64,000 nt of DNA from contig OX597830.1 in assembly GCA_951406725.2 (NCBI GenBank), positions 33,232,001 to 33,296,000 on the forward strand, written 5' to 3'. Origin of the DNA: Octopus vulgaris (taxonomy: Eukaryota). Under the pieces are notes generated by a model that saw only the letters and a program-made list of their open reading frames with translations, was not told the origin of the DNA and did no database searches. Position 1 is the stretch's first letter, and each line of letters starts with the position of its first letter. Positions 44,108-47,818 of this stretch are shown one piece after another. The position numbers were made by a program, and so were the translations under genes.

Positions 44108-44670
<563 letters not shown>

Positions 44671-44927: not shown

Positions 44928-44958
<31 letters not shown>

Positions 44959-44960
44959 AA

Positions 44961-45230
44961 CAACTGCAGTGTGGAAGGTGATTATAAGCCATTTAAGAAA
45001 CACACAAAAACCGTTAGATTCACTTCAACATTTAAATTTGATTTGCCAAAATATTTTCATCGCTTTGAGACCGTGACCTGTTCACTGAAGCATGGAATTT
45101 TGTCAGTGAACAGGTCGTGGTCTCCAAGCAATGAAAATATTTTGACAAATTAAATTTAAATGTTGAAGTGAATCTAACGGTTTTTGTGTGTTTCTTAAAT
45201 GGCTTATAAACACCTTCTACACTGTAATTA
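44961..45230. repeat. Long palindrome (128-bp arms, 14-nt spacer), putative inverted PLE pseudo-LTR
   Basis: Arms 44961-45088 and 45103-45230 differ at 11 positions by manual alignment; the ORF track gives near-identical peptides on opposite strands. Confidence 0.92.
45099..45149 (+). ncRNA. Type I hammerhead-like motif with G3-C8 swapped core; mirror copy on the minus strand at 45042-45088
   Basis: TTTGTCA | GTGAACA | G | GTCGT-ggtctccaa-GCAAT | GAAA | ATAT | T T | TGACAAA. The mirror arm has GTCAC...GCGAT, giving consensus stem II GTCGC/GCGAT. Confidence 0.6.
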
Positions 45231-45285
45231 TTTTTGTTCCAGCACATGATCTCAGATCAGGTCACTTGCTATGCATCTCCGTAAG

Positions 45286-45356
<71 letters not shown>

Positions 45357-45374
45357 TGTATATATATATATGTA

Positions 45375-45800
<426 letters not shown>

Positions 45801-47626: not shown

Positions 47627-47818
47627 TCATTAACATGTCAGAGTTTGTCATTGACAAATCAGTGTGACAGAGTCTGTCATTGCCAAGTCAGAGTGGCAGA
47701 TCTTCTATCATTAACAAGTCAGAGTGGCAGATCCTCTGTCATTGACAAGTCAGAGTGACGGAGCCACTGTCATTGACAAGCCAGAGTGGCAGAACCTCTG
47801 TCATTGACAAGTCAGAGA
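47627..47818 (+). repeat. Minisatellite, ~31-bp unit, about 6 copies
   Basis: Unit ctgtcattgacaagtcagagtggcagatcct repeated with variation. Confidence 0.85.

Follow-up and report, generated by a model that had tools for sequence, protein, structure and literature searches.

Penelope-like elements (PLEs) carry minimal type I hammerhead motifs, whose hallmarks are an extra nucleotide after A9, a G10.1-C11.1 pair, and a palindromic stem III (PMC4209133). At the pair between core positions 3 and 8, a natural U3-A8 has been published (PMC3088659), in PLEs too (PMC4209133), and G3-C8 has been published as an engineered variant (PMC11167929, PMC3884650, PMC8495972), with only partial rescue by the engineered double mutant (PMC4209133, PMC11167929). 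Minimal PLE hammerheads are slow in vitro (PMC4209133, PMC11167929); their cleavage in isolation is poor, insertion in vitro can proceed without them, and it has been proposed that they are passengers (PMC4209133, PMC11167929, PMC8557442). PAc, a Poseidon-clade PLE of Anolis carolinensis, has a naturally C3-G8 hammerhead at the junction of pseudo-LTR (pLTR) and ORF, AT-rich targets, and two internal RT start sites, inside the ORF start, which explain its 30–40-nt tail (PMC11167929). The tail of PLEs is often found at one end only (PMC8557442). Non-LTR retrozymes are linked to PLE pLTRs and likewise combine a type I hammerhead with low GC (PMC7229834; bioRxiv 10.64898/2026.07.22.740005); they are non-coding tandem repeats of 150–450 bp (PMC7229834).

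The locus described here lies in a stretch of 64,000 nucleotides from Octopus vulgaris (contig OX597830.1; hereafter the window) and belongs to a PLE family with a G3-C8 core. The family shares with the minimal type I hammerheads of PLEs the layout, the additional nucleotide that separates position 9 from position 10.1, the G10.1-C11.1 pair, the palindrome, and the position in the pLTR, but has G3-C8, a double transversion, instead of U3-A8 (PMC4209133). Its stem I is 7 bp long, against 4–5 bp in the Schistosoma motifs (PMC4209133), and the motif here is known from sequence alone. The canonical C3-U4-G5-A6-N7-G8-A9 core is absent from the family, and the Watson-Crick 3-8 pair is present. Compared with PAc (PMC11167929), the family has the same hammerhead position at the pLTR-ORF junction, AT-rich targets, and a similar tail near where the ORF begins. 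What had to be engineered in PAc, the C3G/G8C double mutant, is the natural state here; the ORF of PAc starts in stem II whereas the ATG here is ~57 nt after the cut site, and the tail here is longer (~55–60 nt). Penelope and Poseidon elements lack a CX3CxxC linker, which the protein here has; the CX2-5CxxC linker and the CCHH feature of the Neptune and Nematis clades (PMC8557442) are matched, as read by eye, with a hammerhead core that is non-canonical here. With retrozymes the family has in common the type I hammerhead, the tie to PLE pLTRs, and a low GC. Unlike the retrozyme repeats (PMC7229834), the unit here is coding and 4.26 kb long, and short copies are its truncations.

The window locus

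The first-pass annotation had described a palindrome between microsatellites whose right arm has the layout of a hammerhead with a G3-C8 core, and both descriptions were confirmed. The arms pair over ~44965–45227 (~263 nt; −196 kcal/mol, z −24, 0 of 100 shuffles equally stable), and stem I, the core, GAAA, AATATT, and U17 of the right arm read as claimed (Table 1). The left arm has the short 3' end and the right arm the long one, with 45229–45282 as a right-only unpaired extension of the palindrome, which fits the pattern of the family. Flanking (TA)n is usual for other copies of this PLE family, and the sequence of the central junction differs between copies. A target-site duplication (TSD) is not discernible at this locus.

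Table 1. Features of the element and its flanks, in positions of the window
Feature	Position	Strand	Source
(AT)n microsatellite, left flank	44928..44958	.	repeat annotation
Left arm, inverted 5'-truncated pLTR copy ending at the family's short 3' end	44961..45088	-	
Left hammerhead-like motif (G3 45085, C8 45080, U17 45049)	45042..45089	-	
Central junction with remnant of family leader	45089..45098	+	
Right hammerhead-like motif (predicted cut 45142/45143)	45099..45149	+	
Right stem I, 7 bp	45099-45105/45143-45149	+	
Right core GUGAACA: G3, C8, A9	45106, 45111, 45112	+	
Extra G between positions 9 and 10.1	45113	+	
Right stem II, 5 bp, CpG-decayed	45114-45118/45128-45132	+	
GAAA, G12-A15.1	45133-45136	+	
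Stem III palindrome AATATT	45136-45141	+	
U17	45142	+	
pLTR body, ends at short 3' end (~45228)	45150..45228	+	
PLE 'tail' reaching long 3' end	45229..45282	+	
(AC)n then (AT)n microsatellite, right flank	45286..45542	.	repeat annotation

The minimal type I layout with its palindromic stem III, present in family copies, is decayed in the window. The right stem II lies where it had been placed but is damaged by a G10.1-U11.1 wobble and a single C-A mismatch. Folded in isolation, the 51 nt do not outperform shuffled sequences (z −0.55). The suggestion that the two arms together restore stem II as GTCGC/GCGAT did not hold, since intact copies have GTCGC/GCGAC with a Watson-Crick G10.1-C11.1 pair. 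The left arm carries the same core on the minus strand and a truncated 5' strand of stem I, as had been noted, but stems I and II each contain a mismatch as well, and a hammerhead was not returned in its 56-nt or 66-nt folds; the left motif is probably inactive. The two folds are antisense to each other and would both be buried in the one long hairpin that a transcript across the locus would form. The pLTR body includes an ATG at 45199, homologous to the one at which the PLE ORF begins in tandem copies. The tail, which in full elements is part of the ORF's first 32 codons, is interrupted here by a stop at codon 16 and has lost 6 nt, and no ORF of ≥120 aa adjoining the element within the window pointed to a PLE (judged without a Pfam scan). 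The locus is a decayed insertion in which a PLE end is present head-to-head, an ordinary fragment of such an element. Because of the CpG decay in stem II, the broken left arm, and the hairpin burying both folds, this copy is probably dead. Taken singly, it is weak evidence for a hammerhead.

Rfam, searched at E up to 10, returned no hammerhead family in the region, nor for an intact G3-C8 copy or a canonical sister copy, and its miRNA matches in the region reflect the long hairpin and the microsatellites. As the canonical sister motif is missed too, the blank is not caused by the 3-8 swap. The prediction that scans for CUGANGA would overlook the family is accurate for a strict descriptor, which misses the motif by construction, but does not account for the Rfam result.

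Several further observations were made in the window. Between both 3' ends, at 45229–45275, there are two small tail hairpins, a GATC-centred palindrome and, in intact copies, ACTTGC/GCAAGT; sister families retain similar sequence in this region, and the hairpins are candidates for an RT start-site structure. Head-to-head insertions, such as 44965–45227 and many other family loci, would if transcribed give long, nearly perfect RNA hairpins, which may be Dicer or ADAR substrates. Upstream of the element, a dispersed repeat at 44520–44660 presumably belongs to a SINE-like family common in such genomes, and a 31-bp minisatellite of 5.6 copies is found at 47646–47817.

Family size and fixation of the G3-C8 pair

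An exact 30-mer from the element body occurs 2,370 times in the 2.8-Gb genome. When a pattern that admits either C or G at position 3 and at position 8 and requires an intact stem II was searched, 8,060 matches were found, against 1 for the reversed-pattern control. Among the first 100 matches listed, a hand count gave 81 G3-C8, 16 C3-G8, 3 G3-G8, and 0 C3-C8; uncompensated states make up 3 of these first 100. The canonical C3-G8 pattern alone has 1,603 matches genome-wide. G3-C8 motifs with intact stem II accordingly number at least ~6,400 (8,060 minus 1,603), a lower bound, as decayed copies like that of the window escape the pattern. Evidence for the hammerhead at the family level is far beyond chance.

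The proposal of a naturally compensated G3-C8 core was upheld. The pair is present in 105 of the 108 arms that cover both positions, in copies picked regardless of their core, and in 53 of 55 pLTRs for which RT/EN similarity was the sole criterion of choice; the whole motif is intact in 48 of the 55. A search for another base at position 3 found 149 copies; among 100 of these that were listed and read by eye, 5 are compensated (4 A3-U8 and 1 U3-A8) and none is C3-G8, as expected from decay after insertion. Columns with ≥10% variants are concentrated in loop II (5 of 8 non-CpG columns) versus the core and stems (1 of 35; P = 3e-4, Fisher’s exact test, with columns not independent), and the sole variable column of the core and stems is an A-to-G change that leaves a wobble pair. 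The core varies at 1.4% per site against 4.7% in the downstream pLTR, a modest contrast in these raw rates. The family is also present in contigs of four sequencing runs with four organism labels, where variants of ≥5% are located in loop II and at the same wobble position and none at positions 3 or 8; such assembled contigs cannot show RNA ends, strand, or expression. A metagenome scan gave 2 weak matches among 33 candidate stretches.

Loop II is 8 nt long in ORF-bearing copies, and the window copy falls in a 9-nt-loop group whose UTR is ~67–85% identical to theirs. The 9-nt-loop group is probably the older one, and G3-C8 is kept in both subfamilies.

The parent element

The first-pass annotation had suggested a PLE origin with inverted pLTRs and had proposed that RT and GIY-YIG sequence be looked for in longer copies, where it was indeed found. 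Some copies reach beyond the motif on its 5' side, where the leader has 537 matches, and these run for variable lengths through a microsatellite-rich UTR of ~1 kb into an ORF. The motif in the pLTR lies ~1 kb downstream of the ORF encoding RT and GIY-YIG and, in tandem copies, again just upstream of the ATG. Pfam GIY-YIG scored above cut-off in two of the three family ORFs scanned (530 aa and 313 aa), and the third ends inside the domain. No match to Pfam RVT_1 was found at E 0.1 in the RT part of the scanned ORFs; the RT part is 23–33% identical, by tblastn, to other GIY-YIG-bearing loci of the same genome. In the 807-aa ORF of locus L184, read by eye, there are what we take to be RT motifs. 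The same ORF, again by eye, has a CX3CxxC linker, a GIY-YIG domain with two inner Cys, and downstream His residues (definitions of the linker and CCHH from PMC8557442).

The most complete arrangement of pLTRs and ORF is seen in L182, in which direct pLTR copies flank the ORF in a unit of 4,261 nt, accompanied by one inverted copy; the ATG is 92 nt after G3, corresponding to 45199 in the window. An intact natural copy of the motif is that at L182:9496-9545. In L181 the upstream pLTR is truncated and leads straight into the ORF, and in L180 a tail fragment lies upstream of it. The ATG-to-stop span is ~1,067 codons, and no unbroken frame over it was found among the 20 regions examined. ORF-bearing copies are 97–99% alike, which marks the family as recently active. 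A first search by GIY-YIG family returned other PLE families, with a fragment of this element in only 1 of 30 loci, apparently by chance. The features of C-terminal EN+ PLEs are all present, namely the RT and GIY-YIG ORF, (partial) tandem pLTRs, a one-sided tail, and variable TSDs in AT-rich DNA, and the element is almost certainly Penelope-like.

Insertion anatomy

Among 128 arms, 67 have the long 3' end, 49 a short end ~60 nt earlier, and 12 another end (138 arms were found, and 10 were dropped with five loci of one duplicated segment). The inverted pairings, 32 in all, comprise 25 of long with short, 1 of short with short, none of long with long, and 6 others; ~23 of the 25 long-short pairings are independent, as L182 is counted twice and L112 and L118 look like copies of the duplicated segment. 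Most copies are only ~200–350 nt long, and many are one-armed. As for target sites, 13 of 25 pairs share ≥8 nt, against a mean of 8.1 and a maximum of 12 in mismatched pairs, values inflated by TA repeats; clear duplications of 12–14 nt with variable sequence are found at L094, L100, L111, and L126.

One inverted insertion sits in a larger segment that recurs many times along contig C1 (L102, L103, L107, L109, and L110, probably L112 and L118). A fixed palindromic unit, considered from the recurring 151-nt arm spacing, was rejected, for these loci share flanks and belong to the larger duplicated segment. At L026:1501-2180, there is a three-unit array of a short inverted arm plus a full arm, with (AT)n between the units, the only short tandem among 30 loci. 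A 3' hairpin and microsatellite flanks are hallmarks of Helentrons, and a Helentron was dropped as a candidate after the RT/EN parent had been found.

Sister families with a canonical core

A divergent PLE relative by protein similarity (about 40–54% identity) carries a canonical core and a similar stem II in the 3' UTR at 5 of 12 loci (L213, L215, L216, L217, and L221; three of them near-duplicates, with GAAA intact in L221 only). Fetching 30 loci with the canonical pattern yielded three sister types, and 5 of the 30 loci have a fragment of EN upstream. Protein identity to the sister families is ~45%. The sister pLTRs align with those of the G3-C8 family through the tail and both 3' ends, and their C3-G8 motifs occupy the homologous pLTR position, with compensatory changes in the stems. 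All 5 of the 5 sisters compared match the family at the other 11 core positions, against an identity of 44–53% in the downstream pLTR. One sister type has stem I GUCA/UGAC and U17 in common with the G3-C8 family and looks to be its closest relative.

Covariation of the stems, a check proposed for the genome-wide copies, was seen over 12 aligned motifs (3 G3-C8 and 9 canonical). Both partners change in seven of the 13 pairs, among them 3-8, 2.1-1.1, 10.4-11.4, and 15.2-16.2, and 92% of cells pair, versus 23–48% in slid controls; the canonical motifs of this set were fetched with a pattern that requires such a core, and the shuffle control is inflated by the kinship of the sequences. The 3-8 pair is C-G in 9 of the 12 motifs, those 9 having been selected on the canonical pattern, G-C in 3, and unpaired in none. 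Homology to the canonical sisters is the strongest line of evidence pointing to a hammerhead, and the G3-C8 motif very probably descends from a canonical one.

In a second PLE lineage of the same genome, there is a hammerhead-like motif whose core is U3-A8, whose stem II is 4–5 bp long, and whose palindromic stem III reads ACAUGU. The motif is found at 6 of 30 loci (L038, L040, L041, L044, L049, and L055), on the sense strand and ~450–950 nt after the GIY-YIG match. C-G, U-A, and G-C at positions 3-8 thus all occur in PLEs of one genome.

Proposed mechanism and alternative explanations

A probable reading of the locus is that two 5'-truncated pLTR ends of an autonomous PLE lie head-to-head in it, that the family has a fixed G3-C8 hammerhead, likely still weakly self-cleaving when dimeric or when helped by the element's protein, and that the copy in the window is probably dead. 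During insertion, the endonuclease would nick both strands of an AT-rich target, reverse transcription would start at two internal RNA sites to produce the short end and the tail, and the two cDNAs, both terminated early, would be joined head-to-head to give a locus like that of the window (by analogy with PMC11167929 and PMC4209133). In tandem transcripts, two hammerheads 4.26 kb apart may pair via their AAUAUU palindromes and cut after U17, which would release unit-length RNA, perhaps with protein help as in PAc. The stem III dimer was not obtained when two motifs were cofolded at minimum energy, so that it is proposed from the palindrome and the literature. The flip from C3-G8 to G3-C8 would be a single event of this lineage, likely retained because catalysis requires the 3-8 pair. 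It is a fixed compensatory change and not a product of chance, given the thousands of G3-C8 motifs, their presence in RT/EN-picked copies, and the canonical sisters with compensatory stems. Measurable cleavage by intact copies is somewhat favored, and the self-cutting fold is likely to be under selection, as judged from sequence comparison.

The same PLE might instead carry a vestigial or structural hammerhead, with G3-C8 fixed by a founder, negligible cleavage, and stems kept for protein binding or as a promoter, a reading that we regard as unlikely. Since the family is young, fixation could be due to one founder instead of continuing selection; yet the only core differences from the sisters are the two 3-8 partners, which are complementary, in pLTRs that have diverged downstream to ~50%. 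G3-C8 has also persisted in both loop subfamilies, and uncompensated states are rare, as counted above, neither of which suits a vestige. The function of PLE hammerheads is itself in doubt from work on other elements: catalytic mutants leave insertion in vitro unaffected and no reads end at the cut site in Anolis RNA-seq (PMC11167929), and Naiads spread without hammerheads, their authors suggesting that hammerheads may merely parasitise PLEs (PMC8557442).

The first-pass annotation had called the family retrozyme-like. A non-autonomous retrozyme family, with short hammerhead repeats, circular RNAs, and borrowed PLE proteins, would agree with the small size of most copies, with the three-unit array of L026, and with the proposed derivation of retrozymes from PLE pLTRs (bioRxiv 10.64898/2026.07.22.740005). 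It is already contradicted for the bulk of copies, which are 5'-truncated ends of an autonomous 4.26-kb PLE: they extend 5' variably through the microsatellite-rich UTR into the ORF, the unit between hammerheads is coding, and short tandem arrays occur in 1 of 30 loci, which makes this explanation highly improbable. The variable central junction, the unequal arms, the many one-armed copies, and the continuation into an RT and GIY-YIG ORF all speak against a MITE or foldback DNA transposon with a merely accidental likeness of its palindrome to a hammerhead, although such an element might show a long inverted repeat and TA-rich flanks, as well as the inverted match of 9 nt that links the leader with the long 3' end. 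Its target-site duplications would be fixed, and those observed are 12–14 nt of variable sequence. The end pairing and the target duplications together rule out the MITE, the least probable of these explanations, and leave little room for a retrozyme.

Implications

In a search through the text of mainly open-access papers, no natural G3-C8 pair and no report on this kind of PLE family were found; a prior listing of a natural G3-C8 may exist. We tentatively suggest, as a reading that could well prove wrong, that a recently active animal PLE family with thousands of copies depends on a G3-C8 hammerhead that is catalytically active, which would be the first natural example of the flipped pair with good support. 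If so, the one genome would hold this family together with canonical C3-G8 sisters and a PLE family with U3-A8, and so offer a matched set from nature in which PLE hammerhead catalysis can be tested. Sister families that differ at only two core positions are in any case a ready comparison. Descriptors of the hammerhead should treat positions 3 and 8 as a pair, not as C and G. If catalysis is under selection, a fixed compensatory flip of a pair of the active fold, in a lineage that produced thousands of copies, is the kind of evidence that nature should offer, and a flip across a dead single-mutant intermediate would, if the reading is true, show in vivo selection for hammerhead catalysis during the life cycle of PLEs.
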